Shown: one piece after another, positions 42,408 through 64,000 of the stretch
Numbering within the stretch: the first letter of the stretch is position 1
Layout of the letters: the number at the start of each line of letters is the position of its first letter
Sequence record: PZ445439.1
Origin: a phage
Length of the DNA: 64,000 nt
Strand: one strand, 5' to 3'
Made by a program: the position numbers and the translations under genes
Notes under the pieces: generated by a model
Seen by the model: only the letters and a program-made list of their open reading frames with translations
The model's database searches: none
What the model was told of the DNA's origin: nothing

Positions 42408-42432
42408 TCCAATATCCTCATTTGCCCAATTA

Positions 42433-44609: not shown

Positions 44610-44613
44610 AATT

Positions 44614-44985: not shown

Positions 44986-44987
44986 AA

Positions 44988-45164: not shown

Positions 45165-45166
45165 AA

Positions 45167-45801: not shown

Positions 45802-45814
45802 TACAATTTCCTCA

Positions 45815-46084: not shown

Positions 46085-46181
46085 TTTATTCTCCAAGTTG
46101 TTTTCTGTATCAGTAGTTGATATTGATATAGTACCATAATCAACTACTGATGTATATAGTTTTATGAAAAAATTTTAAACT

Positions 46182-46673: not shown

Positions 46674-46746
46674 AGTTATCTCTCACTTGTTAAAAAGATT
46701 TTATACTCCACGGGACCATTATACTCTGGTCCCAAGAGTTTGTAAA

Positions 46747-47184: not shown

Positions 47185-47194
47185 AATTTTCTCT

Positions 47195-47698
47195 TTAATC
47201 TAAGGTAATAAAGCCTTTTAATTCGGCATGTGACTTGCGGAACATTACTTGATGCCCACCAATGATAACTTTATCTTCAGGTACTTCGTATACAGCGAGA
47301 TAAAATCCTTTAGAAGCTAATTCTTCACGCTCTTCTCGTGTGAACCATCTCATCATATCATATTCACTAGCAAAAGCAAAATGATAAAGAGCTATAAACC
47401 ATCCTGGAATATAGTGATCTACGCCTACATATTCTTCTTTCTCAAAATTAGTATTAATTGCTATATTAGCATTTTTAACTAATAGTTTGTCTTCGTGCGG
47501 AAGAGGAATTCTTTTATTATCATTACTATGATGCATAAAATTAGGTCTGTCATAACCTACGTGTAATAACCACTCTTCGCTCCATGAATCCATTATACTC
47601 CTGTACGGCGTTATTTGAACACAAAGATCTCGACGTATTGTTATAGCATCTTCATAATTAAGAATACTAAATGATGATTCAACACGATAAATTTTCAT
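47195..47698 (-). CDS. hypothetical protein, about 167 aa (internal Met start)
   Basis: early-type promoter lies inside the track N-terminal extension; GAGGATAATAAA-ATG at internal Met. Confidence 0.5.
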   Translation of the reverse strand: MKIYRVESSFSILNYEDAITIRRDLCVQITPYRSIMDSWSEEWLLHVGYDRPNFMHHSNDNKRIPLPHEDKLLVKNANIAINTNFEKEEYVGVDHYIPGWFIALYHFAFASEYDMMRWFTREEREELASKGFYLAVYEVPEDKVIIGGHQVMFRKSHAELKGFITLD

Positions 47699-47723
47699 TT
47701 TATTATCCTCAGTAGCTATGGTG

Positions 47724-47755
47724 TTATAATACCACAACTAACCGAGGAAGTAAAC
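47724..47755 (-). promoter_or_regulatory. early-type promoter candidate (GTTTAC, about 18 nt, TATTAT)
   Basis: motif pair upstream of ORF 47195..47698. Confidence 0.35.
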
Positions 47756-47761
47756 AACTTT

Positions 47762-48445
47762 TTATCGTTTTGTTGGAAGAGATAGAGGATCGCACTCTTC
47801 CTCTGACGGAGCATCTTCAAGACCCATAGCATATCGCAAAGCATACTTCATCATCAGGATGTCTTTCGCACAATCATGAATAGAATCATGCGCAACGAAT
47901 CCATCTAAAGTTCCCTTTGGAAGAGGACATGTAGTCATATCACGAACAAGCAGAAGTGCTTCAATTCTGGTACGAATATCACGCTGATTCCAGAATTTAC
48001 AAGGTTCTAACTTAAACGTATCAAGCTCATTCTCAGAAACGCCATTAAGACGTTGAATATCGCGAATGAGATCGACTAAAATTGGAAAATCAAACGACAT
48101 TCCACGGCACCAACCTTGAGATTTCCAAGGATCGATATTATGTGCATTGATGTAATCGTTGAATTTTGCAATACCATCAATGGTGCTTACATCTTCATCG
48201 GATGGTGCAATATTTTTTCGAGCTTCAGGAGACTGATTTTTCCACCATTCGATAGTGCTTTTAGTAAAAAGACGATGTCCTTTTTGGCTTTTTAAATCAA
48301 ATTTGATTTTAATGCCACGTGAAACTAATTCATCAAATGTTTCAACAACTTCTGGGTTAGGGTCAAAGGCAATAACAGCCAAATCAATAACCGCTGCTTT
48401 TTCACCGCTTCCCATTGTTTCAAAATCTATAATAAAATCAAACAT
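47762..48445 (-). CDS. dexA: exonuclease A (DEDDh 3'-5' exonuclease)
   Basis: 227 aa, N-terminal DFETMG exonuclease motif, size as T4 DexA. Confidence 0.75.
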   Translation of the reverse strand: MFDFIIDFETMGSGEKAAVIDLAVIAFDPNPEVVETFDELVSRGIKIKFDLKSQKGHRLFTKSTIEWWKNQSPEARKNIAPSDEDVSTIDGIAKFNDYINAHNIDPWKSQGWCRGMSFDFPILVDLIRDIQRLNGVSENELDTFKLEPCKFWNQRDIRTRIEALLLVRDMTTCPLPKGTLDGFVAHDSIHDCAKDILMMKYALRYAMGLEDAPSEEECDPLSLPTKR

Positions 48446-48687
48446 TAAATTTTCCTCGCTAAATCGCGAATTTGACCTACAGTATAATCTTGGATATAAA
48501 CTTTATTAATGGGCTCATCAATAAATTTTGCCATAGATTCAATATCTTTTTGTATCTCTTCAAGACTGTATACTATCTTTAAAGCTTTTTCGCGAATAGT
48601 AACATTATCAGGTCCTGGATTTTCCTCAATGACAGCTTTGACATTTGTCATAAGAGATTTAAACTGATGCAAACTTAATTCAATCAT
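48445..48687 (-). CDS. hypothetical protein, 80 aa (tandem paralogue A)
   Basis: track ORF, ATG start; pattern ..LEEIQKDI.. shared with next ORF. Confidence 0.45.
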   Translation of the reverse strand: MIELSLHQFKSLMTNVKAVIEENPGPDNVTIREKALKIVYSLEEIQKDIESMAKFIDEPINKVYIQDYTVGQIRDLARKI

Positions 48688-48940
48688 TAATAATCGCCTT
48701 ATAAAGATAGCTAATTTCGCCTAAAACATAATCATTAATTGTAACAGTTTTCACTTCACCGCAAAAGAATTCTAACGCAATTAAATCTCGTTCAATTTCT
48801 TCTAATTGAAGCATCAACTTACTAGATTCAATTTTTACAGTTTCACGATTTTTACCATGAGCAATTTCATAAATTTCGCTAACTTTATCCTGAAGAAGAT
48901 AAAACTGATCTTTAGTTATTTCCACGAATAGCTTCCTCAA
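48680..48940 (-). CDS. hypothetical protein, about 81-86 aa (tandem paralogue B; start codon uncertain, possibly GTG)
   Basis: track ORF begins at a non-ATG codon; ..LEEIERDL.. motif. Confidence 0.4.
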   Translation of the reverse strand: MRKLFVEITKDQFYLLQDKVSEIYEIAHGKNRETVKIESSKLMLQLEEIERDLIALEFFCGEVKTVTINDYVLGEISYLYKAIIND

Positions 48941-48946
48941 ATTTAA

Positions 48947-50266
48947 TCATACGTAAAACACATCATAACGACCACGAGTGACACCAACATAAAGAAGCTG
49001 CTGAGCTAATTCAGCATCTGCATAATGAATACAAGGCGTATAGATGAAAGCACGGTCTACAGACATACCCTGCGCTTTATGGAATGTTGATGCAGGAAGT
49101 GCTTTCACTTTACTAAACTGTGATTTAGCATCCCAAAAATCACTCCATGGAGCTTTTCCGCCTTTATTCCAATTTTTATAAGTTTCTGCGGTTTTACCTA
49201 AAAATAGGTTAAACTTATATAGCTCTTCATCGGATGAAATTATTTTAATCTTTTCACGATAATATTCATCATCGCCATAAGTTTCTACTGTTAAATCCCA
49301 ATGACGAATTAGATATTCTCCAGGAACACCACGAGCTTTAACAAAGGTTGATGTATACTCTGCTTCTATAATACGAACTAATTGTCCGTTATTAAAAATA
49401 ATTTCTGACACAGGCTTTCCATCAATTTTATATGTTTTAATTAATGGTTCCTGCATTACAATAATTTCACCGACAATAAAATCTTTATCAGTTTCAAAAA
49501 TCTTTTTACGAATAATGCTATTTAACTTGTCAACAGATTTATTCGTAAATGCCATTACGCGATTTTCAAACAAATCATCTAGTGATTTGACGATTGAAAA
49601 ATAATTTACCATAAAATCGCGTAAAGCGGTATCACCGGTAAATCCACGTACTCCATGACCGTCAACAACTTTATCATAAATCCACTTACCGTTACGAACG
49701 TCAGTAGCTACATCAATAATAGGAGCATTACTGCGTTTAACTTCAGTGAGTTCACACTGATAAAAATCTTTGTGTGTAAAGAATGGACTGATATAAGCAG
49801 TATTTTCTCCTGGGTCAACAGGTCTAATTTGCTTATTATCACCTATTCCAATTATAGTACACCAAGGTGGAATGGTTGAAAGCAGAATTTTAAATAGCTT
49901 TCTATCATACATTGACACTTCGTCGCAGATTAATACCCTGCATTTAGCTAAATCTGGTACTTCTTTTTGTTCAAAAAGAACGTTTTCTTCATATGTTACT
50001 GGGTTAATTTTGAGAATACTGTGAATAGTACTTGCTTCTTTCCCAGATAGTTTTGAAAGAATCTTTTTAGCTGCATGAGTAGGAGCTGCTAAAATAATAC
50101 CAGTTTCACCTGTAGATATTAGGGCTTCAATAATGAACTTAGTAAGAGTAGTCTTACCAGTACCAGCAGGTCCATTAATAGTTACATGGTGTTTCTTTTC
50201 TTTGATAGCCCTCATAACGATGTTAAAGGCATTTTTCTGGCCTTCGGTCAAATCATCAAATGTCAT
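48947..50266 (-). CDS. dda: Dda DNA helicase (SF1B)
   Basis: 439 aa, Walker A GPAGTGKT, size as T4 Dda. Confidence 0.9.
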   Translation of the reverse strand: MTFDDLTEGQKNAFNIVMRAIKEKKHHVTINGPAGTGKTTLTKFIIEALISTGETGIILAAPTHAAKKILSKLSGKEASTIHSILKINPVTYEENVLFEQKEVPDLAKCRVLICDEVSMYDRKLFKILLSTIPPWCTIIGIGDNKQIRPVDPGENTAYISPFFTHKDFYQCELTEVKRSNAPIIDVATDVRNGKWIYDKVVDGHGVRGFTGDTALRDFMVNYFSIVKSLDDLFENRVMAFTNKSVDKLNSIIRKKIFETDKDFIVGEIIVMQEPLIKTYKIDGKPVSEIIFNNGQLVRIIEAEYTSTFVKARGVPGEYLIRHWDLTVETYGDDEYYREKIKIISSDEELYKFNLFLGKTAETYKNWNKGGKAPWSDFWDAKSQFSKVKALPASTFHKAQGMSVDRAFIYTPCIHYADAELAQQLLYVGVTRGRYDVFYV

Positions 50267-50574
50267 CGTAAATTCCCTGCAATTGGTATACTAACAATAC
50301 GCCCAGTATCTAAAATTCGCTGATATAATCTTTGCGTGTCTACGTCAGGCTTAACATGTTTAACTTCTATTTTATTAAACCAAAACTTACGTGGAGTCTC
50401 AACTAATCTTGGAATTCCCTTACCTAAAGCTAGTCGATACTGCTCTTTAAGAGTAGTAAATACTTTATCAGCAATATTCCATTCAAAAAATACAGCAGGA
50501 CGATGTTCATCAAGTGGAACTGGCGCTGTAAATCCGTCTTTGTCTCGGTAAACTATCGCATATACATAAACCAT
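50263..50574 (-). CDS. hypothetical protein, 103 aa (dda.1 position)
   Basis: track ORF, ATG start. Confidence 0.5.
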   Translation of the reverse strand: MVYVYAIVYRDKDGFTAPVPLDEHRPAVFFEWNIADKVFTTLKEQYRLALGKGIPRLVETPRKFWFNKIEVKHVKPDVDTQRLYQRILDTGRIVSIPIAGNLR

Positions 50575-50575
50575 A

Positions 50576-51322
50576 TTATCCTCGGATAAGTTTAAAAATT
50601 GAACAATTTAGCGGGTATCCTCTTTTCAGTTTAAGTTTATCAATAAAAGACAAATTTTGATACCGCTCTACACCTTGAATAATTTTATCACACATATCAT
50701 ATTGCATTTCTGCTTCTGACAGCTTTTTCACAATTTTCCAATCCGAGCCTTTAAGAAGAACGTTCAGTTTAACAACTTCAGCGCCTTCTGCTATGCGAGA
50801 ACCATCAATACGAGCTTTAAGTGCTATAATCCTTAGCTTAATGTCAGAGGTCTGTTTTGATTTAGAAAGCTGAGAAATGTGTTCAATTCGATTTTCACGT
50901 TTTTTCTGTATAGCTTTAATTTGATTATAAGTCTTTTTGATTTTAGCCCATTTCTTTTCATCTAAATTTAGTTTATGAACTTTTTTCGCAGATGAACGAC
51001 CAATTCGCAAAGCAAATAAATCCCGTTTTTCAATCAACTCTTCTAAAGTATAATCAGAACGAAATGTATTATACTTTTTCTTTACTGCAATAACATTCCC
51101 TTTAATATATCCAATGTTATTATCAAAACGTTCTAATGATAATTTCTCTCCTTCAATACGATTATCAAAAGGTTCTCCCGAGTAAGCACAAACTTTTTGA
51201 TCTAAAATGTTCTTAATGTAATTGAAGTCTAAGTTAAAATCTTTAGAACGTCTTTTAGCAGATGCCTGAGTGTGCTCTAAACGACGTTTAATTTTACGAA
51301 TTTGATTATTAGACAGTTTCAT
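50576..51322 (-). CDS. hypothetical basic protein, 248 aa (position corresponds to T4 srd)
   Basis: track ORF, ATG start; assignment by position only. Confidence 0.5.
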   Translation of the reverse strand: MKLSNNQIRKIKRRLEHTQASAKRRSKDFNLDFNYIKNILDQKVCAYSGEPFDNRIEGEKLSLERFDNNIGYIKGNVIAVKKKYNTFRSDYTLEELIEKRDLFALRIGRSSAKKVHKLNLDEKKWAKIKKTYNQIKAIQKKRENRIEHISQLSKSKQTSDIKLRIIALKARIDGSRIAEGAEVVKLNVLLKGSDWKIVKKLSEAEMQYDMCDKIIQGVERYQNLSFIDKLKLKRGYPLNCSIFKLIRG

Positions 51323-51444
51323 ATTTTTCTCACATCTTACGGACGATTGACTACTATACTATAACATTTTTACTTCAGATTGTAAACAACTTTATGCAAA
51401 AATGCTTTAAAACTTTCGTGGTATAATGAATCTAAGTCCTTCCA

Positions 51445-52047
51445 TTATAGATTAAATCCTTCAAAATCAAGAGTATAGATAGTATATGTTGAATACTTTT
51501 TATACTCATATCTATCTGCAATTCTAAATACACTTCCAGCTGGTATCATTACTTCTTGTTCATCTGAAACTAATTCCATATTACGATAACGATGGCTATC
51601 CGGAAACTTAAAGTTTGGATTGTATTCTTTACAGCGTAGAGCTTTTATGGCATACTCCTGGAAATTGAATACCATAGGAGCTTTGAATTCAAAAATAACC
51701 TGTGTGTTATACTCTAAACCGGAAGCAAAATGTAGAGCTATATTTTTATCATATGAAGCTGATACGACTTTATCAAATGTAATAATATCAATTCCTTGAT
51801 TTAACACCTGCTTAGTCTCAGCTGGAACACCTCTCCAAAGAGGTTTATCGTTTGGAACCAAACGAGATTTGATTATTTCATTTAACCAAGTATGGTCATC
51901 TGGTTTGTTGGTAATACAATGAATTAAAAGTTCAATTTCAGATAAATTAAACCCTTCAGAAAGTAATTCTTCACGAATAGAAGCACGCACCGATGCATCC
52001 ATTGATTTTATTTTAAAATCTTTTAGTTGCATTACTGAGTATTTCAT
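51445..52047 (-). CDS. modA: ADP-ribosyltransferase ModA-like (200 aa)
   Basis: R-S-E type motifs (LWRG, SAS, EQEVMIPAG); paralogue of the adjacent gene; modA/modB split assigned by size. Confidence 0.6.
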   Translation of the reverse strand: MKYSVMQLKDFKIKSMDASVRASIREELLSEGFNLSEIELLIHCITNKPDDHTWLNEIIKSRLVPNDKPLWRGVPAETKQVLNQGIDIITFDKVVSASYDKNIALHFASGLEYNTQVIFEFKAPMVFNFQEYAIKALRCKEYNPNFKFPDSHRYRNMELVSDEQEVMIPAGSVFRIADRYEYKKYSTYTIYTLDFEGFNL

Positions 52048-52667
52048 TCAACTACCTCAATATCATAAACTTTAAATGTTCCAAATGAATCGTGTAATTT
52101 TTCTTTTGAAATAGAAGTTATTCTATACTTTCCAATTGGAATCATCCATTCCTGTTCACGCACAATCATCATTAAGTTATCAGTACGCTCTGAATCTAGC
52201 CCATCAGTATCTTCATACGTATACTTAAACTCAGTATTAGGAGAAGAAAGTATAATATCGCTGATATGGTCAGAATAATTAAAAGCTTTATCAGTTTTTA
52301 AGCGAAGTATTATTTTAGTAAAATATTCAGCATAAGAAAAAGAACATGCTGTGAGCAAACTAGTAGTAAATGAATCTACTCTATTCGTTGAAAACACTTC
52401 TCCAACTTGTAAATCTTTAATAAGTTCTTCTGTTGATTTTGATATACCACGATATAACTGATAAGGCGATTTAGTTAAATGCTTTTTAACGATTTTATTC
52501 AACTGCTGATGAAGAGCTTCATTCTTTTTAGCTTCCATACATTGCCAAAGAATTGACTGCTCAAAGTCAGTAAATTTTTCACAGACTTTTTTATACATAT
52601 CATATTGAAAATCAACGCTTTCAGCTTTTATAGATAACTGTTCAACATCTGCAAGATTAATAATCAT
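52044..52667 (-). CDS. modB: ADP-ribosyltransferase ModB-like (207 aa)
   Basis: R-S-E type motifs (LYRG, SFTTS, EQEWMIPIG). Confidence 0.6.
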   Translation of the reverse strand: MIINLADVEQLSIKAESVDFQYDMYKKVCEKFTDFEQSILWQCMEAKKNEALHQQLNKIVKKHLTKSPYQLYRGISKSTEELIKDLQVGEVFSTNRVDSFTTSLLTACSFSYAEYFTKIILRLKTDKAFNYSDHISDIILSSPNTEFKYTYEDTDGLDSERTDNLMMIVREQEWMIPIGKYRITSISKEKLHDSFGTFKVYDIEVVE

Positions 52668-52734
52668 GATAGCCTCCGTATACTTCAGAAGCTATCATAT
52701 CATTGTTAGGAAGGAAAGTAAACAACTTTTTGAA

Positions 52735-52917
52735 TTATTTTGCCCAGGGAGCCCAGGGCGGAGGGTCAAGATGGTATGAAGCTAGTTCTTCTAGAAGAGC
52801 ATCTGGGGCTTCAATTCCATAATTCTGTAATACTATACGGTACTCTTTCTTATAATCACTAGAATCATTCTGGATATTCGTAGAATGATTATCTTCTAAC
52901 ATCTCAAATAAATCCAT
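52735..52917 (-). CDS. hypothetical acidic protein, 60 aa
   Basis: track ORF, ATG start. Confidence 0.4.
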   Translation of the reverse strand: MDLFEMLEDNHSTNIQNDSSDYKKEYRIVLQNYGIEAPDALLEELASYHLDPPPWAPWAK

Positions 52918-52925
52918 ATTAATTC

Positions 52926-53396
52926 CTAGCGATAAAAACCAAAATGACGATTAGCTTCAGCAATCTTTCTTTCTTCTTCGGACATTCTCCATCGTAGTCC
53001 AACATCAAAATGAGCCCAGACCATCCTAACAAATGCATTTATATCTTTAATATCTTCAATAATGAATGTTTTACTTTTAGAAGGTTGACTCGCTAATTTA
53101 ACTTTATCGTCTTCAAACATGTCAAAAAGACCATATTCATGAGCTCTTTTATAGCCTTTAATAGTTAAAGCTTCAGAAGAAGAAAATGGTGAATCTGTAT
53201 TCTGCAAAATATCTTCAGTATGCTTTATAATTAGAATAATATTTTCTGGATATTTTCTTTCTTTTATATCTTTAATTAAAATATCCGGATTTTCTGCTAA
53301 AGGAATAATTAATGAGCATTTTTTATCAAGTGTATTTACTGATTTACCTTCTTTAGACATAAATTCTATTGAATAATGTTTTGCTACTTCAATCAT
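52926..53396 (-). CDS. hypothetical protein, 156 aa
   Basis: track ORF, ATG start. Confidence 0.5.
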
Positions 53397-53549
53397 GGGA
53401 TTTCCTTTTGCCTACTAATGGACCATCGGGAATTTTGTTTTCCTGGATATATTTCTCATTTTCTTCCATCATTTTACTGCCAATTTTAAGAAGCAAATCT
53501 AAGGCTTCATTTGCTTTAGCTTTAGCCTCTTCTAACGTCATGTTCTTGT

Positions 53550-53753
53550 TCATGATTTATCCCCATAGATGTCTCTCATCAATTTAAGTGCTGAGCGTTC
53601 TAATTTCTTTTCTTTCTCAGCACTAATCATTGATTTCATCCATTCTTCCGATTCGTTCTGCATTTCTTTATTTGCCTGTTCAACCCAACCATCGTCAATA
53701 TACATTGAGTTTGGTCTATTGAACCATTCAAGCATTTTCTTCAGAACTTTCAT
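53550..53753 (-). CDS. hypothetical protein, 67 aa
   Basis: track ORF, ATG start. Confidence 0.4.
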
Positions 53754-54213
53754 TTGTTTTACCTAAAACAATAGTAGGAGCATCGTCAAATTCATGAATT
53801 TTTAGCAATTTTGGATTTAAATTATTCCATACATAATAAATAAAGTATGATAAAGCATCTTCACTCGCAATTATAAATTTATTTCCTTCATTTATTTTCC
53901 AGTCATATACTGAATCGTACGAATAAAAAGATAAAGGATTACCATTATATTGTTCTGCGCTAACATTAATGTATTCGGATTTAGTAAATGCTTCAATTGC
54001 TCTAAACGGACTATTTGGCACAGTTTCAATAATTCCGATCTTTTTAAGTTTTATTTCAACATCTTCTGGAACTGGCATTGAAACGAAATTTTCTACGAGA
54101 TACATAGGGTTACAATAACCCTTATCAATCACTACGGCTACAGTAATTGGAACATCTTTAGCAAACGACATGCTATTACTGCTAATATACATTTCAAACA
54201 AAATTGCTTCCAT
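53728..54213 (-). CDS. hypothetical protein, about 161 aa (internal Met start; position consistent with T4 mrh)
   Basis: GAGGAAAATT-ATG at Met-5 of track ORF. Confidence 0.5.
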
Positions 54214-54221
54214 AATTTTCC

Positions 54222-54563
54222 TCAATCACAAGATGTAGATGAACAGCTAGAATCACAAGAACTTCCGCATGAATCACCTGCCCATACATGAACAGGGACA
54301 TTTGTATCATATGAATCAGAACTAGACTGTGTATTCTGTGCATTAGATGATGTAGTAGGTACTGACCAGCGCCAAGGATTTTTATAATATTCTTGGGCTT
54401 CTTCATAAGTCATAGTAACTGCTTCTACTGTTCCATCTCCCATATAAACATACTCAACTACAGTTAAAGGAAGGTAGTCATTTGAAATAGGAACTACACC
54501 TTCTCCCGGAGTTGTAGAGAAAAAATCTGTAAAGAAATTTTTAAACCAATTAAAGATAAACAT
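54222..54563 (-). CDS. hypothetical protein, 113 aa, hydrophobic N-terminus and Cys/Ser-rich C-terminal tail
   Basis: C-terminus ..[18 protein letters not shown]. Confidence 0.45.
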
Positions 54564-54775
54564 TACAAAAAGCCTCTTTGAAATTCGACTCTTTGAAATC
54601 CACCCCAGTCAGTATATCGCATTTCAGCATTGAACTCGACTGAACCATCTGCATGCATCATGAATGAATGCGTGACGACATCACAATCCCAGCTTTTCAT
54701 ACCCCATTTATCAGAGATAGCTTTATCAAGAACCTTCTGAAGGTCTTCATTTGGTTTAATCCAACGATTTAACAT
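54563..54775 (-). CDS. hypothetical protein, 70 aa
   Basis: track ORF, ATG start. Confidence 0.45.
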   Translation of the reverse strand: MLNRWIKPNEDLQKVLDKAISDKWGMKSWDCDVVTHSFMMHADGSVEFNAEMRYTDWGGFQRVEFQRGFL

Positions 54776-54840
54776 AGTGTTCTCCTCTATAAGATATTTT
54801 TATTATACCACACTCATTTTGACATGTAAACCATAAAATG

Positions 54841-54865
54841 AAAAAAGGAATCCCGAAGGATTCCT
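54841..54865 (-). terminator. intrinsic terminator after soc (AGGAAUCC-UUCG-GGAUUCCU then U tract)
   Basis: 8 bp stem with UUCG loop and U run about 8 nt after soc stop. Confidence 0.55.
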
Positions 54866-54873
54866 TAAATTAT

Positions 54874-55131
54874 TTAACCACCTACACCTGGTGTAGGTGT
54901 AACAGTCCAAAGACCTTCATTAGCAGTGATCCATTCAGTACGTTGATTTTCTTCATATACTGTAGAATATGCTGCTTTTTCAGAAGGGAATGTCTGATAA
55001 TGAGCACCAGAAATTTTGTGAACATCAGAATAAAGAGGGAAAGCTACAGAAATTTCTTTACCCTGAATTGTACCACCATCAACTGCTTGGTCAAATGTTT
55101 TAATATTAACATAACCGCGAGTACTAGCCAT
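54874..55131 (-). CDS. soc: Soc small outer capsid protein
   Basis: 85 aa, matches recalled T4 Soc over most of its length. Confidence 0.85.
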   Translation of the reverse strand: MASTRGYVNIKTFDQAVDGGTIQGKEISVAFPLYSDVHKISGAHYQTFPSEKAAYSTVYEENQRTEWITANEGLWTVTPTPGVGG

Positions 55132-55147
55132 GTAATTCTCCTTTTAT

Positions 55148-55357
55148 TTAAATTACATGATTATTTATAATAAATTCTCGCGGAACGTTAAAATACCCGA
55201 TTTTAGTTAATATAACAACATCGCCGTTAATAATTACCGGAGAATAATCTTCTGGAGCATTAAATTTCCAATGGGCTCTAATATTATATCCATCAGAACC
55301 AAATGCTCGAGTAGCCGGTCTCCCGGCTTTTTGCCACGCGTAGAAATCAAATTTCAT
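55148..55357 (-). CDS. hypothetical protein, 69 aa
   Basis: track ORF, ATG start; contains soc late promoter in its 3' end. Confidence 0.4.
   Translation of the reverse strand: MKFDFYAWQKAGRPATRAFGSDGYNIRAHWKFNAPEDYSPVIINGDVVILTKIGYFNVPREFIINNHVI
55162..55169 (-). promoter_or_regulatory. late promoter TATAAATA upstream of soc
   Basis: exact TATAAATA about 30 nt before soc ATG. Confidence 0.45.
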
Positions 55358-55548
55358 TTTGAATGCTCTATAATTAATTTTAAAGCTTCTTCACTGACAA
55401 AAATTTCGTCAGGACCTTCTATAACTTCAACCATACGAAGTTGATTAGTTAAGAGCTCACATACGAGCTCCTTGTTATAATCTTTAAATAGCTGGTCAAT
55501 ACGTTTCTTATGGGCTTTCTTAAGCTGACGCTTATTTAAACGAGCCAT
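55354..55548 (-). CDS. hypothetical basic protein, 64 aa
   Basis: track ORF, ATG start. Confidence 0.4.
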   Translation of the reverse strand: MARLNKRQLKKAHKKRIDQLFKDYNKELVCELLTNQLRMVEVIEGPDEIFVSEEALKLIIEHSK

Positions 55549-56066
55549 TAATAACCTCGGTCTTGACGAGCGAAGTTTTCAGCATTTTTCAGATAATAAA
55601 GTTTAAATATTTCTTCAGCTGACATTCCAAGAGCAATGAATTTATTCATGAAAAAGTGAAATTGATCAATCAGTTCAAATTTAATTTCAAGTTGATCTTC
55701 AGGAGATAAGTCTTGAATTTTCTTGGATTGCATTTCAGAATAACGTTTCTTCCAAGGTTTCCATACGGCAGAAGCTTCTTTTTCACCATTACTCATACCA
55801 CCAAGAGAAGTATATAGCTCGCGAGTTTCATCTGCGATATAATCGTCTTGGTTTCGCAACCAAGCAAGAACTTCTCCTGCAGTTTCAAGTGAATCGGGAT
55901 GACGATTTGTTTCTGGTTTATCATTAGCCAAACGAATCTGTAAATGCCGCTGCATATCAAGCATAACCTGCAATGGGTCAATACTGTGCATAATATACTC
56001 AGCATATGCACGATTTGCTTTATCAACACCTTCGATCAAATGAGCACATTCATTAAAGTGAGCCAT
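55548..56066 (-). CDS. 56: dCTP pyrophosphatase gp56 (MazG-like)
   Basis: about 172 aa from internal Met (MAHFNECAHL..); track N-terminal extension is hydrophobic and probably untranslated. Confidence 0.8.
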   Translation of the reverse strand: MAHFNECAHLIEGVDKANRAYAEYIMHSIDPLQVMLDMQRHLQIRLANDKPETNRHPDSLETAGEVLAWLRNQDDYIADETRELYTSLGGMSNGEKEASAVWKPWKKRYSEMQSKKIQDLSPEDQLEIKFELIDQFHFFMNKFIALGMSAEEIFKLYYLKNAENFARQDRGY

Positions 56067-56137
56067 TATTTTTCCTTTCAATTCATGGGTTAGTAGATTA
56101 ATTATACAATAAATATATAAAGCAATAAGGAGGACAT

Positions 56138-56338
56138 ATGGTACAAAAATTAATGGCACTTGTTAATGCCATAAAAGGTAATAAGAAACGTATAGCTTTT
56201 ACTATTTCTGCTATGGTAGGAATTTTACTCTGGAACTTTATTTTATCACCTGTTGCAATTGCACATGGTATTAATATTCCAGTAGTTACTCTTGATACAT
56301 TCGTAGATTTAGCATTTGCTTTAGTTGGGTTAATTTAA
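56138..56338 (+). CDS. small hydrophobic protein, 66 aa, on opposite strand between genes 56 and 61
   Basis: strong AAGGAGG Shine-Dalgarno 4-5 nt before ATG; two predicted TM segments; convergent with gene 61. Confidence 0.35.
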   Translation: MVQKLMALVNAIKGNKKRIAFTISAMVGILLWNFILSPVAIAHGINIPVVTLDTFVDLAFALVGLI

Positions 56339-57363
56339 ATCTTAGCATATTTAGATAGCCGCATTTTAGCCATCAACCCCTGGGCAATATTATTTTTCAT
56401 ATATTCCATAATTTGTTCAGGGGTTGCACCTTCCTTTCTAATCATATCATTAACATCTTTTGATTTCCAGGGAGATTTATCCCAAAACATAACCCTTTCT
56501 CCTGCATCAACTAATTTAGTCATTCGTTTGATAGTGTCAGGGTGACGAGGTTCATTATCTAAAACCCACACTCGTCTATCTTTAAATGGAACAACTTCTA
56601 GGTCTAATTGACCACCCGTAATAGCTATACCATTTTCAATAAAAAGTGAATCTATAGGTCCTTCTAGAACATATACATCACCATCTTTAACTCGTTCGAC
56701 TCCATATATTTTTGTTGCCTCAGGATAAGCTTTGATGGTGATATATTTTTGAGGAGCATCTTTCTTTAATGCACGTCCTTGAAAAGACTCAGCTTTTCCA
56801 TTAGCATTATAAATTGGAATAACAAGACGAGGCTCAGAAATTTCCTTTTTGTATGTTCCCGGTGCTATGCTATTAACTAATTTAGGCCATTCGGTTGTAA
56901 ACCAAAGATATTTCCATTTATCCTTTGGAATACAACGAGCTTTTACATATTTTATAATTGGATGGTCTTCCGCCAGTTTATCTAATCTAACGCATGACGG
57001 AAGAGATTTAATTATTTTCTTCTCAGGTTGTTTAGGAAGTTCTTTAGGTTTTTCTACTGGACGACTTTTACCTTTTTCTTTTCTTATTTCAAAGATATAC
57101 TCACGATATAAATCAGGTTCAAACTCCTTTAAATATATTCCGATTGGTGCATGATAGTTACAGTTATAACAATGAATATTTCCTTCATTATTATCACCAT
57201 AATACCATCCACGAGCTTTATTCTGGTCGGTTTTTGAATCTCCACAAACAGGGCATCTAAACCGTAATTTAAAAGTTGAACTATTATTTACTTGTGTGAA
57301 TTTAGGTAAATGAGCTAATGCACGGTATGCAAACTCATTATCAATCCAAGGTATTGATGACAT
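56335..57363 (-). CDS. 61: DNA primase gp61
   Basis: 342 aa, N-terminal zinc ribbon (CPVCGDS..CYNC) and Toprim region. Confidence 0.9.
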   Translation of the reverse strand: MSSIPWIDNEFAYRALAHLPKFTQVNNSSTFKLRFRCPVCGDSKTDQNKARGWYYGDNNEGNIHCYNCNYHAPIGIYLKEFEPDLYREYIFEIRKEKGKSRPVEKPKELPKQPEKKIIKSLPSCVRLDKLAEDHPIIKYVKARCIPKDKWKYLWFTTEWPKLVNSIAPGTYKKEISEPRLVIPIYNANGKAESFQGRALKKDAPQKYITIKAYPEATKIYGVERVKDGDVYVLEGPIDSLFIENGIAITGGQLDLEVVPFKDRRVWVLDNEPRHPDTIKRMTKLVDAGERVMFWDKSPWKSKDVNDMIRKEGATPEQIMEYMKNNIAQGLMAKMRLSKYAKI

Positions 57364-57365
57364 TT

Positions 57366-57530
57366 TTACTCTTCTTTTTCTTTAGATTCCTCTTTTTTCT
57401 TTTTAGGAATCTGTTCAGGACCTTTATTTACTACAGCGCCTGACGTTGTTCCAGTAGAGATATTTTCAGGATTACCACCTGAATCTCCAGCGACCATATC
57501 TTCTTTGATAAATTCTTTATATGTTTTCAT
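57366..57530 (-). CDS. small acidic/basic protein, about 54 aa (61.1 position; below ORF-track cutoff)
   Basis: ATG 2 nt after stop of ORF 57532..57888; Lys/Glu-rich tail. Confidence 0.4.
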   Translation of the reverse strand: MKTYKEFIKEDMVAGDSGGNPENISTGTTSGAVVNKGPEQIPKKKKEESKEKEE

Positions 57531-57574
57531 ATTAACCTCTATTCATAAAAGCATTAAAAATTTGGTCATCAATA
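57528..57574. repeat. direct repeat copy 1 (about 47 bp)
   Basis: CATATTAACCTCTATTCATAAAAGCATTAAAAATTTGGTCATCAATAG; 44/47 identical to 57886..57932. Confidence 0.6.
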
Positions 57575-57888
57575 GATGGTGCAGTAATATTTTCTGCATC
57601 ATTTAGCAAATCATTAATTTCATCAGATAGCATAACACATGTACCTTTATTTCCTGTAATTGTTACTGCACAATTACGAACGTTTTCTTTATCAAATTTT
57701 AGGTTAATATTTTCGTAGTGAAAATCCTTTAATGCCGAATATATCTTTAAAATAAAATTGTCTTTTACTACAATAAACCCAACCTCACTATTAAAACGTG
57801 GTTCATGGAAACTGTAATAAACCTTTTCATCTATAAAATCGTATGAAATTTTTTCCATTTTTAAATATGAAAATTCAGAACTATACAT
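57532..57888 (-). CDS. hypothetical protein, 118 aa; C-terminal 13 aa identical to the upstream gene
   Basis: track ORF, ATG start; ends ..SIDDQIFNAFMNRG as does ORF 57890..58528. Confidence 0.5.
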   Translation of the reverse strand: MYSSEFSYLKMEKISYDFIDEKVYYSFHEPRFNSEVGFIVVKDNFILKIYSALKDFHYENINLKFDKENVRNCAVTITGNKGTCVMLSDEINDLLNDAENITAPSIDDQIFNAFMNRG

Positions 57889-57932
57889 ATTAACCTTTAT
57901 TCATAAAAGCATTAAAAATTTGATCGTCAATA
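57886..57932. repeat. direct repeat copy 2 (about 47 bp)
   Basis: covers last codons and stop of ORF 57890..58528 plus start codon of ORF 57532..57888. Confidence 0.6.
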
Positions 57933-58528
57933 GAAACTTTTACTTTAGGCTGTTCTTCAAACGGTAATTCATATCCACATATTACAATTTTGTGATCGAT
58001 ACCAAAATACACAGAAGCAATATGATTAATATTATTTTCAGTGAAATCTAAATCAACATCAATATCTTTTTGACTAACGCTCAAAGGATAATTAATACGA
58101 ATAATTCGATTATCTTTAACAAAGATTCCACCGACATACTCTGTGTTGCGTTTAAAGTTTACACGTTTCCTAAATGAAAAATATTCAGGTTCTTTATGAG
58201 CCCGACTCATAGGACACAATGAGTAGCTAGAATAAGAGATGTCAAATCCTACACCTTCAATATGAATATGAGCCAACGTGTCATGATTAAACCAATTATA
58301 ATCATATGCCAAATCCATTATATTGTAATATGTGAAAGGCACCGGATTAACATCATATGTTGTACCTTTAAAATCTGCCCAGGCAACGATTTCGTTATCT
58401 TTAACAATTACAAAAATTGTGCCAATAAGATATCCACGGTTATTTTCATCAGGTGTTATATTATAACATTGTGCATCAGGAAATTTACCGTATTTAAACG
58501 GTGGATTTTTGTGCATATAATAAATCAT
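57890..58528 (-). CDS. hypothetical protein, about 212 aa (61.2 position; ATG at Met-4 of track ORF)
   Basis: track ORF starts at an upstream non-ATG codon; AGGTGA site before the internal ATG. Confidence 0.5.
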   Translation of the reverse strand: MIYYMHKNPPFKYGKFPDAQCYNITPDENNRGYLIGTIFVIVKDNEIVAWADFKGTTYDVNPVPFTYYNIMDLAYDYNWFNHDTLAHIHIEGVGFDISYSSYSLCPMSRAHKEPEYFSFRKRVNFKRNTEYVGGIFVKDNRIIRINYPLSVSQKDIDVDLDFTENNINHIASVYFGIDHKIVICGYELPFEEQPKVKVSIDDQIFNAFMNKG

Positions 58529-58529
58529 A

Positions 58530-58823
58530 TTATTCACCTGTGATTTCGGTTACGATATTTTTGTTATTAAAGTTTTTATCGCAATACAGAACATAATTAT
58601 ACTGCATTACACCACCAGACTTAAGTTGTTTTTGCACTTCAGCTTTCATTTCAGGACGATCGCGCTCAACGATATTCATAATATCTGCTTCAATTTGGGT
58701 TTCAACTTCAGTCTGATCCGCAGTCATAGACCATTCGCACAAATCTTTATCATAGCCTGCCATAGCAGGCTGAGCAGCACAAGAAGCCAAAGTAAAAATT
58801 GTAGCAAAAATAAATTTTTTCAT
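58530..58823 (-). CDS. sp: Spackle-like periplasmic protein (superinfection exclusion)
   Basis: 97 aa with signal peptide; size and position as T4 sp. Confidence 0.7.
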   Translation of the reverse strand: MKKFIFATIFTLASCAAQPAMAGYDKDLCEWSMTADQTEVETQIEADIMNIVERDRPEMKAEVQKQLKSGGVMQYNYVLYCDKNFNNKNIVTEITGE

Positions 58824-58883
58824 GATAATCTCCTCAGTAGTTTATGTTTATATAGTATCTCAATTTCCAACAAAAGTAAACAG

Positions 58884-59141
58884 CTATTTTAAAACTTCTG
58901 CATAATCACATGTTACAAACTGTTTCTCTAGCTTGACGATTTTACGAAAGTATCTTTTGCATTGGCGAATCTGTCGCTTCGTGGGGCGAACAGCAAACTT
59001 AATAAATTCCACTCGACCAAATGGAGGACTTTCTTCTGCTGGAATATCTAACACCAATTCCCACGTATCTGCAATAAGTGCTTTGAATTGAGTATTTTTC
59101 CTGACGTTATACGGAGTAGGTTTAAATAAAACAATATGCAT
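58884..59141 (-). CDS. hypothetical basic protein, about 85 aa (internal Met start)
   Basis: GAGGATAAT-ATG at Met-15; this start abuts the dmd stop without overlap. Confidence 0.45.
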   Translation of the reverse strand: MHIVLFKPTPYNVRKNTQFKALIADTWELVLDIPAEESPPFGRVEFIKFAVRPTKRQIRQCKRYFRKIVKLEKQFVTCDYAEVLK

Positions 59142-59142
59142 A

Positions 59143-59325
59143 TTATCCTCGGCAATCCACTTCGCACACTTTCTTGTCATCAATGAAAGCTTTAACTAAT
59201 GCTTTATTAACTTCAGCATATTGAGTAGTAGCCCATTGAACGTCATCTTTCATCATTGTGATTTCTTTAGTAAACATGCTTTCATTCTTAAACCACCCCA
59301 TAAAAACTACCTTTACCAATTCCAT
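59143..59325 (-). CDS. dmd: Dmd antitoxin (inhibitor of RnlA/LsoA toxins)
   Basis: 60 aa, matches recalled T4 Dmd. Confidence 0.8.
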   Translation of the reverse strand: MELVKVVFMGWFKNESMFTKEITMMKDDVQWATTQYAEVNKALVKAFIDDKKVCEVDCRG

Positions 59326-59364
59326 AACAATCTCCTCATTTAACCAACAAGACTACTATACCAT

Positions 59365-59394
59365 AGTCTTGTCAGCTTGTAAACTAAAATTTTA
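59365..59394 (-). promoter_or_regulatory. early-type promoter candidate for dmd (GTTTAC, 18 nt, TATAGT) inside an 8 bp inverted repeat
   Basis: motif pair; inverted repeat CAAGACTA/TAGTCTTG spans the -10. Confidence 0.35.
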
Positions 59395-60811
59395 ATTCAT
59401 TTGCCAAAGCATCTAACTGAGCTCGAGTGGATTCATTTCTTTGATAGCGATTCTGCTCAGCCTGAATCTGTTGTGAACCTGCTACTTCACTCACTTCAGT
59501 TGGAGTAGAATCTTGTTCAATTTCTACCCATTTTTGATTTCCTTTTTGAACACCCATCAAAAACTTATTCCACTTATTCTTATCACCATATCGTGATTTG
59601 ATTTGCTTAATGAGTTGTTGTTCAGCAGCTGCTAGCTCCTCGGTTTCAATGACCGCAAGCATAAAATCAGCTGTTGCTGGAAGACCAGCAGATTCTGCAA
59701 TATCGCTCATGTTAACATCGGAAGAGTCCCAAGCTTGTTTACCAACCTGTGCTGCAGTCCAAAGAACAGTTTCGGTTTCAACAGCCAGAGCACGCAATTC
59801 CTCTGCGATAGCTTTAACAGTTGTGTAACTATTTTCTGAATAAACTCTAATGCGGCAAGATTTACAAATACCTAGATAGTCGACAATAATGATTGTTGGA
59901 ACAAAATTCTTCTTGAGCTTTAATTCATTTAAAAGTGATCGAAATGTATTAGCGTCTGCTCCACCAGTAGGATATTGCTTAACGATTAAACGACCAAGGG
60001 TAGATTTCTCACGCCATTTTTCCATTTTTCCTTTATACTCAGCGTAAGAAATATGCCCATCATCAATGTCATCAAGAGAAACATCGAGCATGTTAGCATC
60101 AATACGTTTAGCACAGACTTCTTCTGCCATTTCCATGGAGATATAAAGAACGTTATGACCAAGCTGCAAATAATCTGCTGCCAATGAACACAGACCTAAT
60201 GACTTACCAACGTTAACGCCAGCCATTAAAACGTTCAGTGTTCCAGTCTCAGCTCCACCTTTCGTAATTTTGTTTAGAATTCTGAGTTTAAATGGAACCT
60301 TACGAGCTTTATTCATATAAGATAGCCAACGCGCTTCATAGTCATCCATCCAATCATGACCAACGTAGCTATCAAATGAAATTGATAATGCTTGGCGCAT
60401 GATGTCAGGAATAGCACCTACATCTGGCATTTTCTTATTTCGTTTTTCCGGAGGAAGCTCAGCATTAGTTTGAATTTCGATTATTTTAGACGTAGCATTA
60501 AACATCGCCCTTTGCTGAACATATTTTTCTGTTTCTTTTACTAACCAGCTGTGGTCTTCTGGAGAATCAGCCAGTTTTGAAATAAGTGTTTTTACACCAG
60601 AATATTCTGTTTCAGTAAATGAACTATTTTCTAATGCAACATTTAACGCATTAATAGATGGAACGCTATGATACTCATTAACATGAGATTTAATTAATTT
60701 GAATGTATTTTTAGCTGGACCACTTTCAAAATATTCTGAATCCATATATGGCCAAACTTTTGAAAAATAAGCTTGATCAAATATGAGATGAGAAAGAATA
60801 ATTTCTACCAC
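59384..60811 (-). CDS. 41: replicative DNA helicase gp41 (DnaB family)
   Basis: 475 aa, Walker A GVNVGKS. Confidence 0.95.
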   Translation of the reverse strand: MVEIILSHLIFDQAYFSKVWPYMDSEYFESGPAKNTFKLIKSHVNEYHSVPSINALNVALENSSFTETEYSGVKTLISKLADSPEDHSWLVKETEKYVQQRAMFNATSKIIEIQTNAELPPEKRNKKMPDVGAIPDIMRQALSISFDSYVGHDWMDDYEARWLSYMNKARKVPFKLRILNKITKGGAETGTLNVLMAGVNVGKSLGLCSLAADYLQLGHNVLYISMEMAEEVCAKRIDANMLDVSLDDIDDGHISYAEYKGKMEKWREKSTLGRLIVKQYPTGGADANTFRSLLNELKLKKNFVPTIIIVDYLGICKSCRIRVYSENSYTTVKAIAEELRALAVETETVLWTAAQVGKQAWDSSDVNMSDIAESAGLPATADFMLAVIETEELAAAEQQLIKQIKSRYGDKNKWNKFLMGVQKGNQKWVEIEQDSTPTEVSEVAGSQQIQAEQNRYQRNESTRAQLDALANELKF

Positions 60812-60820
60812 ACTTACTCC

Positions 60821-61177
60821 TTAAAAGAATTTAAATTTTTTCTTTGACCTTTTATTAAATGCATCTTGCAGTTGCATTGTAATACATTTTTCTACATGAG
60901 GAGCTAACTCAGCTTTTCTTTCTTGGTCAAGAACAGCAAAGTCCATTACGACTTTTCCATCAACCCAATCTAATTTTGTCACATACACAATGTGTGTAGA
61001 ACCATCTTCTAGTTTAATGACAATCTCCTGGATAACATTTTCCATGGCAGATTTAATTATCTTAAGAGATTCATTAAAAAGACGTTCTTTTCTTTCTTCT
61101 TCCCCCTCCGAAGAGGGGGATTCATCGATAATTTCTAAATCTAAATCATCTTTACTCATTAAATTCTTCCATATCAC
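60821..61177 (-). CDS. 40: gp40 head assembly protein (true start may be a few codons in; track ORF overlaps uvsX stop)
   Basis: size and position between uvsX and 41 as in T4. Confidence 0.6.
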   Translation of the reverse strand: MIWKNLMSKDDLDLEIIDESPSSEGEEERKERLFNESLKIIKSAMENVIQEIVIKLEDGSTHIVYVTKLDWVDGKVVMDFAVLDQERKAELAPHVEKCITMQLQDAFNKRSKKKFKFF

Positions 61178-62333
61178 TTAACTGCTCGAGGTCAGTTTCT
61201 AAATCAGCAGCTGATTTACTTTTACTTTCTGGAGATTTAAATTTTTCAACCTTTGAGTTAATCAATTCATCAACTTCAGCTTCAACAATTTCATTACTAT
61301 CAATAGCACCTAACTGATAAGCACGTTTAATAGCATCTCGGAATGGTTGATGCTTAAATAAAGGACCCCAGAATGTAGTGCAGTTGGTATCTTTTGCACG
61401 CCAAGATTTTTCTTCGCGAATCATCTCGCCGGTTTCTTCATCAAGAAATTCACGAGCATACCAGCCATTTTTAGGTTTTACCACGAATCCTAATTCTAAA
61501 GCCATATCTAACAATCCAGAATAAGGATCGATACCACCGTCAAATTTAACATCAATAAAGAATTTACTTTTTTCTTTAACGGTACGAGATTTTTCTACAT
61601 TTAGAACAAATTGATACCCCTGAAGATCAGAACCATCTTTAATCTGACGCTTACCGATAATGAATACAGTATCAGCCGAATACATTACGCCTGTACCACC
61701 TGTCATCACGGTTTTACTAAACATTTCAATTGTTTCAATTGTATGGTTAACCGCAACACATGGAATATTTTTAATGCTAAAGTAAGGAGTAACAATACGG
61801 AATAATGACTTCAGTGATTTAGCACGAGTCATATCTGCCACAGATTTTTCATTCAAGGCATCTTCAGTTTCTTTCTTAGAAGCCATATTACCGATTGAGT
61901 CGATGAATACAATAACTTTTTCACCACGCTCAATATCTTCAAGCTGATTCACCATATCAATTTTCAGCTGTTCAACTGACTGGATTGGCGTATGAATTAC
62001 TCGTTCCGGGTCAACTCCCATGGATCGCAAATAAGCTGGAGTAATACCAAATTCGCTATCATAGAATAGACAAACCGCGTCAGGATATTTGTTCAAATAC
62101 GCCGCAACCATAGTCAAAGACATATTTGATTTAAAGTGTTTAGAAGGCCCTGCGAAAATAGTTAAACCAGACTGCATACCACCATCAATCGCACCAGAAA
62201 TAGCAATATTAAGCATTGGGATTTTTGTACGGATTACATCCTTTTCATTAAAGAATTTAGATGTAGTCAGTTCAGCAGTCATTTTAGAAGTGGAAGCTTT
62301 AATCAAACGGGATTTTAAATCTGCAATAGACAT
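61152..62333 (-). CDS. uvsX: UvsX recombinase (RecA-like)
   Basis: 393 aa, RecA-fold Walker A region, acidic C-terminus. Confidence 0.95.
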   Translation of the reverse strand: MSIADLKSRLIKASTSKMTAELTTSKFFNEKDVIRTKIPMLNIAISGAIDGGMQSGLTIFAGPSKHFKSNMSLTMVAAYLNKYPDAVCLFYDSEFGITPAYLRSMGVDPERVIHTPIQSVEQLKIDMVNQLEDIERGEKVIVFIDSIGNMASKKETEDALNEKSVADMTRAKSLKSLFRIVTPYFSIKNIPCVAVNHTIETIEMFSKTVMTGGTGVMYSADTVFIIGKRQIKDGSDLQGYQFVLNVEKSRTVKEKSKFFIDVKFDGGIDPYSGLLDMALELGFVVKPKNGWYAREFLDEETGEMIREEKSWRAKDTNCTTFWGPLFKHQPFRDAIKRAYQLGAIDSNEIVEAEVDELINSKVEKFKSPESKSKSAADLETDLEQLSDMEEFNE

Positions 62334-62410: not shown

Positions 62411-63259
62411 TTAATCAACTGCTATTGGATGAATAGCATTAAACTTATGAAATGCTTCTGATTTTTCTTTGCGCGAAACACACATGCGAAGAACCTTTAA
62501 TGGCTCGTCTTCTTCACCCAACGATTTTCGTTTTTCAATATTAGAAGTTTTCCAACGAGCTTGCTCTGGAAACTCTCTATTGATTTGCTCAAGCGCTCTA
62601 TTATGTTTAGAATTACTACGAATTGAACTGCACCCGCCAGGAGCTTGTGCTTTTCCAGATACAACCAGATATTTGAACAAGGCCAAATGCGGATAACCTT
62701 GATTAATTAAATTGAGAAATGCATACATATCTTCACATAAATCAATTTTTCCATACCCAATTTGTTCTGTCGTAAGTTTTCCGAGGTCATACCATGTATT
62801 CGTGAATCCATATGAATTTTCACGATAATTACCCCAAGATGAAGTAATTTTAAAAATAGGTAGACGAGCATGGCCATGATAATACCCGCAATCCATAGCA
62901 TCTTCAACGTATTGAATCAATTCGTAGAATTGTTCACGGGTTAATTGATTGACTTTATCTACACAGCGACGATCATCTCTTTTTCGCATTGAGCTCATAC
63001 GAATCGTAGTATCATCGTCAATCATCCAGATTCGTTGACCTGCATACATATCAGTAATTGCTTTACGAGTACCGGCAATTCCGTTTACATCATCAGGAAT
63101 AGTTACAATTTTAGCTCTAGACCCATAGGCGTCATAATAAGCTTTTTCTTCATGTTCACGTACTACAATATGAGGTTCATAATCAGTCGGAAACATATCA
63201 AGGGCAGAAACTGCCCCTACGCGTTGATAGCTCGGAATTACGAATTGAATCATTTCCAC
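62411..63259 (-). CDS. putative DNA glucosyltransferase at the beta-gt locus (beta-alpha-gt-like, GT-A DxD type)
   Basis: 282 aa with IWMIDDD motif; lies between uvsX and gene 42 where T4 encodes beta-gt. Confidence 0.55.
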   Translation of the reverse strand: MEMIQFVIPSYQRVGAVSALDMFPTDYEPHIVVREHEEKAYYDAYGSRAKIVTIPDDVNGIAGTRKAITDMYAGQRIWMIDDDTTIRMSSMRKRDDRRCVDKVNQLTREQFYELIQYVEDAMDCGYYHGHARLPIFKITSSWGNYRENSYGFTNTWYDLGKLTTEQIGYGKIDLCEDMYAFLNLINQGYPHLALFKYLVVSGKAQAPGGCSSIRSNSKHNRALEQINREFPEQARWKTSNIEKRKSLGEEDEPLKVLRMCVSRKEKSEAFHKFNAIHPIAVD

Positions 63260-63990
63260 TCACCGTTATAATCTTTTTTCACAATATGAGTTTCGCCAGT
63301 ATTCCACCAATGATCAACCAAGTAAAAATGACGAGAATATACATGAAGACTTCCAACATTCCATATAATAGAACCTGCTTTATACTGACGAGTTGAATCG
63401 CCTGCATTCAAATCAGATACTAATTTATCTAATACGTATTTTTGCCATGCATAATCATTACGGAATCCGAAGACCACGTCATTTGAGCGCATGCTTACTA
63501 CTGCATTGACTTTCTTATCACGAATCAGGTATTGTACTGTATTCGTACACATGAAATCTGACATGCCATCTTTATTGTAGTCAAACTGCATGGATGGACG
63601 AGTATAAATCATGATACCACGCCGAGAATCAGGATTTTGACCGAGTTCAGCTAAACACATATCATACTGGGCATAGTTATCTTCTGACCAAATAGCCCAA
63701 CCATAATTCGAGTTAATTTCGCCTTTAGAAGATGCTACCTGCTGCCAAATCTTTGGTGTTTCACCTGGAATATCTTTAACAAACAAGCTCTTAGATTTAT
63801 ACCATTCAAGTTCACGCTGAATGTATTCATCATTAAGAGCGCCAAAAATAAACGGTTCATCTGCTACAAATGATGCGCCAATAATTTCAATAGTTTTAAC
63901 GCCAGTTTTATCAACTACGAAATCTTTTTCCTTTAATGCAGTTCCCAAATAAAAACGGATTTCTTCAACTGTCATAGAGTCATTAATCAT
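63250..63990 (-). CDS. 42: dCMP hydroxymethylase
   Basis: 246 aa, thymidylate-synthase-like fold, matches recalled T4 gp42. Confidence 0.9.
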   Translation of the reverse strand: MINDSMTVEEIRFYLGTALKEKDFVVDKTGVKTIEIIGASFVADEPFIFGALNDEYIQRELEWYKSKSLFVKDIPGETPKIWQQVASSKGEINSNYGWAIWSEDNYAQYDMCLAELGQNPDSRRGIMIYTRPSMQFDYNKDGMSDFMCTNTVQYLIRDKKVNAVVSMRSNDVVFGFRNDYAWQKYVLDKLVSDLNAGDSTRQYKAGSIIWNVGSLHVYSRHFYLVDHWWNTGETHIVKKDYNGEWK

Positions 63991-64000
63991 TTAAACCTCA

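Follow-up and report, generated by a model that had tools for sequence, protein, structure and literature searches.

Phage T4 carries dam between genes 56 and 61 (NC_000866: 56 at 16270-16785, dam at 16846-17625, 61 at 17935-18963). The locus described here raises the question of what has become of this gene in a T-even phage (Tequatrovirus) in which a short interval between the same two neighbors holds only a small ORF on the opposite strand. We analyzed a stretch of 64,000 nucleotides from this phage, referred to throughout as the window. The original prediction had given the T4 order correctly and had put the interval at about 270 bp, in agreement with the 268 bp that we measure between the start of gene 56 (56066) and the end of gene 61 (56335). 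It had then read the small ORF as standing in the place of dam. The best explanation of the observations taken jointly, which we hold to be very probable, is that the window has the T6-type, dam-less form of the Tevenvirinae 56-61 interval, that dam is a dispensable accessory cassette, and that the ORF, dam.1, is a conserved gene for a late membrane protein.

The nearest relative of the window is Escherichia phage FelixPlatter (Bas40, MZ501065.1), which is 100% identical to it over 50400-62000 and 63901-64000 and 78-97% identical outside these segments. By this comparison the window is a mosaic, with about 97% identity over 30600-50000 and 78-85% over parts of 10000-28000, in the tail-fibre and nrd regions. 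Over 1-50000, no record of the phage collection reaches 99% identity; a scan of viral contigs for exact 51-mers returned no match, and contigs that encode the Frd protein of the window are 73-99% identical. A 227-aa ORF on the minus strand (17870-18553) has a GIY-YIG-like N-terminus and probably encodes a seg-type homing endonuclease. It lies just upstream of a gene 59-like ORF (17224-17877), whose start it overlaps, and is absent from all of six related contigs and, at that position, from FelixPlatter.

The two genes that border the interval are readily identified. Gene 56 (dCTPase/dUTPase, 172 aa) occupies 55548-56066 on the minus strand in the ORF list; its product is 100% identical to FelixPlatter bas40_0141, annotated as 'dCTPase / dCDPase', gives a weak match to Pfam dUTPase_2 and can be aligned at its N-terminus to T4 gp56. 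Gene 61 (DNA primase, 342 aa; 56335-57363, minus strand) was assigned from the ORF list and the FelixPlatter annotation, and its product is near-identical to T4 gp61. The ORF between them lies on the plus strand at 56138-56338 and encodes a small membrane protein of 66 aa, a description that rests on its match to PHROG 2024, its name in T6, its hydropathy (GRAVY 1.25) and an AlphaFold2 model. A Shine-Dalgarno sequence, AAGGAGG (56127-56133, plus strand), can be read 4 nt 5' of its ATG. The ORF is convergent with gene 61, and the two stop codons overlap by 4 nt. In strand, length, hydrophobicity, ribosome-binding site and convergence with gene 61 the ORF is as first described. Within its coding region, the minus strand has a terminator-like hairpin (56153-56172) with an 8 bp stem that contains 3 GC pairs and is followed by a T-run; in the direction of transcription it comes after gene 61 and shortly before the middle promoter of gene 56, and it is weak by the measure of shuffled sequences (one found, 0.4 expected).

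Comparison with the classical T-even phages shows that the ORF does not replace dam. T6 (MH550421) has the order 56 - dam.1 - 61 without dam, as in the window, and its version of the protein is annotated 'Dam.1; dam.1' (AXN58073.1). The T6 intergenic sequence is near-identical to that of the window, including the motif AATAAATA, the MotA box and the ribosome-binding site discussed below. In T4, the ORF is found intact in the 309-bp gap between dam and gene 61, which bears no annotation (L001 5739-5939, corresponding to NC_000866 17738-17938, plus strand); 64 of its 66 residues are identical to those of the window, yet the RefSeq record has no CDS for it. T4 (NC_000866; also X01416.1, the Macdonald and Mosig record) thus has genes 56 and 61, the MotA-dependent promoter and dam.1 in common with the window, and differs from it by segF downstream of 56 and by about 879 bp of additional sequence that separate the MotA box from the ribosome-binding site of dam.1. 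T2 (AP018813.1) has the order 56 - dam - 181-aa ORF - dam.1 - 61. On these comparisons, dam.1 is a known and named hypothetical gene that coexists with dam.

The arrangement of the window is not unusual but typical of the subgroup, which the original prediction had itself listed among the outcomes that would count against it. About 505 phage records contain the dam.1 locus, among them about 293 with the contiguous 56/dam.1 junction of the window and about 180 in which dam adjoins dam.1; a T4-type Dam at >=90% identity is present in 182 records. Among Tequatrovirus records the dam-less, T6-like state is therefore the majority (~293 against ~180), and it has already been documented: a 2026 paper describes dam as variable among Tequatroviruses (PMC13390438). 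These junction counts indicate that dam is an accessory cassette.

The edges of homology with dam+ phages place the empty site of this cassette at 56125-56127. On the gene 56 side, homology ends at window position 56126, at the end of the MotA box (query positions 1-117), and on the dam.1 side it resumes at the ribosome-binding site, 13 nt ahead of the ATG (query position 167). The T4 cassette, of about 879 bp, consists of the dam CDS and 99 bp upstream of it, while that of T2, of about 1.4 kb, comprises dam and the 181-aa ORF; many dam+ phages resemble T2 in having about 550 bp of additional sequence between dam and dam.1. The T2 ORF (L017 3411-3956, minus strand) has a weak, sub-threshold Pfam match to the C-terminal half of the GATC-specific endonuclease DpnII (E = 0.0096; score 15.7 bits, cutoff 23), and its counterpart has been called 'restriction enzyme-like' (PMC13390438). 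Judging by this similarity, the dam cassette may be the remnant of a GATC restriction-modification module.

As to the direction of the change, dam was most likely acquired by the T2 and T4 lineages and not lost here, a reading that rests on parsimony among mosaic genomes. It is favored by the existence of divergent dam-less lineages, by the occurrence of Dam at unrelated loci elsewhere and by the DpnII-like neighbor of dam in T2. The locus has dam.1 in place and lacks dam in JK45, in Gaprivervirus RZ and in the metagenomic contigs L014 and L015. In other genera of the Straboviridae, homologues of Dam are encoded at other loci: Klebsiella phage SmallBear has one between a denB-like gene and ndd, and RB43 and Krischvirus FL04 have theirs beside nrdC.

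The opposite direction, in which a T4-like ancestor recently lost dam by deletion, perhaps by way of short AT-rich microhomology where the cassette ends, appears rather unlikely to us. A TTAATT hexamer does occur at both edges of the T4 cassette, and Tequatroviruses recombine freely, the window itself being 78-100% identical to FelixPlatter depending on the segment. However, the junction in the window does not look like the product of a simple TTAATT-mediated deletion. Moreover, a deletion would have to be reconciled with the more divergent lineages (JK45 type, Gaprivervirus), in which 56 and dam.1 are neighbors without dam, and with the late-promoter motif of dam.1, which dam-less phages have within the spacer of the gene 56 promoter, while in T4 and T2 a different one is located at the edge of the cassette. 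The DpnII-like remnant beside T2 dam likewise speaks for an acquired restriction-modification module. We therefore retain acquisition by the T2 and T4 lineages as the preferred direction.

The conservation of dam.1 is evident at several levels. Residues 2-66 of the protein match PHROG 2024 over profile positions 1-65 of 65 (E = 1.4e-31), and proteins 97-100% identical to it are annotated in many Tequatroviruses. Searches by tblastn located the gene in 692 phage records, and it abuts the gene for primase in nearly all of them. Its plus-strand position, convergent with and abutting the primase gene and upstream of gene 56 or dam, is shared by the window, T4, T6, T2, JK45 and L014, while in Gaprivervirus RZ dam.1 and the primase gene are separated by a homing endonuclease gene. 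The ribosome-binding site is kept in all homologous loci. At 46-54% amino acid identity, where synonymous sites are near saturation, dN/dS ranges from 0.13 to 0.4. An alignment of the window, T4, T2, T6, L014 and L015a proteins shows the pattern that is kept in divergent homologues, at 46-55% amino acid identity: K/R cluster - WNF - P - AHG - P - D/E..VD - GL. The contig L015, which is Gaprivervirus-like, has a second, divergent copy of dam.1 (473-673, plus strand; 66 aa) in tandem with the first, which it directly follows; the primase gene comes next, and the second copy keeps WN.L..P.A...G...P.V.

T6 departs from this picture in one respect. Its Dam.1 is identical to that of the window except for the first codon, which is ATT and not ATG (L016 1732-1734), so that the annotated protein begins at Met6 and has 61 aa. 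The laboratory strain of T6 may have a reduced or altered expression of dam.1 as a consequence, and the gene may be dispensable.

Given the conservation, the purifying selection and the annotation in hundreds of related genomes, we conclude that dam.1 encodes a protein and is not a chance ORF. The alternative, that the 66-aa ORF is a chance frame in an AT-rich regulatory spacer, conserved solely for its promoters, for the end of gene 61 or for origin function, could draw on the missing CDS in the T4 RefSeq record, the ATT in the T6 version, the want of a match in Pfam, NCBIfam or the PDB, and a literature search that found no paper on dam.1. It would not account for a protein that is kept while synonymous changes approach saturation, for the conserved WNF, AHG, P and D residues, for a ribosome-binding site kept in every lineage, for the tandem paralogue in L015, or for the PHROG 2024 match and the 692 records. 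Nor does the RNA of the region offer a substitute, as a search of Rfam for an element in the dam.1 region returned nothing credible and the fold of its 5' region is not significant (z-score −0.58). We thus consider a chance frame very unlikely and treat dam.1 as a genuine gene in what follows.

By our reading, the 268-bp interval would hold two back-to-back promoters, a MotA-type middle promoter for gene 56 on the minus strand and a late-type promoter for dam.1 on the plus strand. For the former, the MotA box TTGCTTTA (56118-56125) and the -10 hexamer TATAAT (56101-56106), both on the minus strand, were read from the sequence. With (a/t)(a/t)(a/t)TGCTT(t/c)A near -30 and a sigma-70 -10 as the defining elements of MotA middle promoters, the two are predicted to form a MotA-dependent promoter for gene 56. 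This promoter is homologous to T4 P(M)16.53, whose mot-box and -10 are annotated in X01416.1. A Mot-box-like element with a GCTT core, followed by a -10-like hexamer, is present in the window, T6, T4, T2, JK45, RZ, L014 and L015; the hexamer is TATAAT, but TAGAAT in JK45 and L014. In T4, a MotA-dependent transcript, which P(M)16.53 would supply, is thought to prime oriA (PMC3016281).

The candidate late promoter is the motif AATAAATA (56108-56115, plus strand), situated 22 nt 5' of the dam.1 ATG and inside the spacer of the gene 56 promoter, with a predicted start near 56121. T4-type late promoters, which depend on gp55, gp33 and gp45, have at -13 to -6 either TATAAATA or its A(-13) variant and need no -35 element; AATAAATA is such an A(-13) variant, and its activity is a prediction from this likeness. 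A(-13) is the commonest variant of T4 late promoters, accounting for 9 of 50 listed sites (PMC2988020; also PMC1524935). The window has 13 sites of the form WATAAATA where 21.4 are expected, and another of them precedes soc, a gene for which a late promoter is annotated at this place in the T4 record X01416.1.

In each of the eight loci examined, ATAAATA precedes the start of dam.1 by 16-22 nt, and it is embedded in four non-homologous contexts (window and T6; T4 and T2; JK45 and L014; RZ and L015), none of which has the consensus T at -13. In T4 and T2 it belongs to cassette-side sequence, and the spacer of their gene 56 promoter lacks the motif. The recurrence of ATAAATA in four unrelated contexts, on the cassette side in T4 and T2, suggests selection for a late promoter before dam.1. 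The plus strand also carries late genes for tail fibres and the holin, according to the FelixPlatter annotation. The gp55-type variant AATAAATA, together with the strong ribosome-binding site, would then drive dam.1.

The product is probably a single-pass membrane protein that is made late. AlphaFold2 places helices at residues 2-12, 16-42 and 52-63, from a shallow alignment and with moderate confidence (pLDDT 76); the first is predicted to be an amphipathic N-terminal helix, followed by a KGNKKR cluster and a transmembrane helix at about 16-42. Since the cluster precedes the long helix, the positive-inside rule argues for an N-in/C-out topology, probably in the inner membrane. A single transmembrane helix would leave the acidic-hydrophobic C-terminal tail of 24 residues, in which D53 and D57 are conserved, on the outside. 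As a speculation, the conserved A-x-A before HG that follows the helix might be a signal-peptidase site.

Searches for relatives of Dam.1 agree with the original description of the protein as uncharacterised. No informative family match was obtained in Pfam or NCBIfam; against PDB sequences the only match was to the hydrophobic segment (E = 0.03), and a fold search of BFVD returned only orthologues and unnamed proteins. A library-wide HMMER search gave nine matches, three of which, to long repetitive hydrophobic proteins, were judged spurious. In the literature, a search for ribosome profiling of T4 returned no paper.

One orthologue in UniProt carries the automatic name 'Holin', and we considered a class II holin or pinholin as a candidate, a group marked by two or more transmembrane domains, a charged C-terminus and a place in a lysis cassette. 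It was rejected on the predicted architecture, with its one transmembrane helix (16-42), a C-terminal helix of 12 residues and a hydrophobic C-terminus, on the lack of a match to holin profiles, and on the location of the gene among replication genes and not in a lysis neighborhood. T4-type phages, moreover, already have holin T. With the small membrane proteins of lysis and exclusion (pinholin-size holins, T4 RI/Imm-type) Dam.1 does share its length (about 65 aa), a long hydrophobic helix preceded by a basic segment at the N-terminus and, probably, expression late in infection; it has neither sequence nor profile similarity to holin families, and the resemblance is a lead only. Our best guess is that Dam.1 is a late accessory protein of the inner membrane. 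For the fuller proposal, namely that dam.1 encodes a genuine late, single-pass inner-membrane protein throughout the Tevenvirinae, which is possibly processed at A-x-A before HG and acts as an accessory in lysis timing, superinfection exclusion or membrane-associated assembly, we see the chances as evenly balanced.

It remains to ask whether the phage encodes a Dam anywhere. The claim that the window has no methyltransferase-like ORF withstood our searches. T4 Dam as a tblastn query gave a best E of 5.5 in the 64-kb window, with E about 1e-161 for T4 and T2 as positive controls. T4 Dam matches the D12-class N6-adenine methyltransferases (PF02086) with E = 6.7e-51, and the window has no homologue; nor did we find within its 64 kb an ORF of the PF02086 type with DPPY and a SAM-binding motif. 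A scan of open segments of >=100 aa for [DNS]PP[YFW] yielded four places, assigned to Alc, AdfA, a 61.4-like ORF and one wrong-strand ORF, the AdfA assignment being confirmed by Pfam and the others following from position relative to the FelixPlatter annotation. In FelixPlatter, the closest complete genome, no methyltransferase is annotated, and tblastn returned no Dam match with E < 1 in pieces covering all but 399 bp (83101-83499), a segment taken up by the annotated CDSs of dda and of the gene that follows it.

Separately from the question of Dam, the region beyond gene 61 has two adjacent paralogues of AdfA (anti-DarT factor A, PF23813) in place of the single 61.2 of T4, at 57532-57888 and 57890-58537 on the minus strand. 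The full-length copy has 215 aa (E = 1.4e-136), and the shorter copy, of 118 aa, matches only the C-terminal half of the family (E = 1.1e-7).

The suggestion of a relocated dam would have a methyltransferase of the Dam family encoded at some other hyperplastic locus beyond the window, for instance near nrdC or denB-ndd. It could appeal to the different loci of Dam homologues in SmallBear, RB43 and Krischvirus FL04 and to the about 100 kb of the source genome that lie beyond the 64 kb covered by the Dam search, but it is very improbable. The window includes the denB-ndd region and has no Dam there; FelixPlatter, identical over 50400-62000 and the last 100 bases, has no annotated methyltransferase and gave no match in the pieces searched, all but 399 bp of its genome; T4-type Dam occurs in only about 182 of about 505 related records; and dam adjoins dam.1 in 180 records.

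Without dam, the phage would have no Dam of its own for GATC methylation, and 6mA from this source would be absent from its DNA. In contrast to T2 and T4, T6 is not known to induce a DNA adenine methylase. For GATC the window has an observed-to-expected ratio of 0.32, against 0.33 for 10 kb of T4, so that avoidance of the site does not separate dam+ from dam- phages. In the position of T4 beta-gt, the window has a gene for a TAGT-family glycosyltransferase (62411-63259, minus strand; PF20691, E = 2e-9), which adjoins the gene for a gene 42-like protein and by its family indicates di-glucosylation of hmC of the T2/T6 type, not the T4 type. T6-like Tequatroviruses have been described as combining an alpha-glucosyltransferase with TAGT (PMC13390438). 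The phage would rely on hydroxymethyl-cytosine and its glucosylation, and the window encodes the gene 42-like protein and the T6-like TAGT. On DNA with glucosylated hmC, the DpnI/MboI digestion named in the original prediction is an unreliable assay. The different modification state that the original prediction inferred thus holds insofar as the phage has no Dam and a T6-like TAGT, but in a sense that is trivial and already documented (PMC13390438).

The absence of dam is accordingly a common T6-like state, visible in public annotations and in PMC13390438, and the small ORF had already been named dam.1. Two aspects are mildly new. The T4 reference record omits dam.1, although this gene is conserved, shows purifying selection and is probably expressed late. 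Further, the behavior of dam in the T-even phages is that of an inserted accessory cassette; in phages of the T2 type this cassette carries a remnant resembling DpnII.
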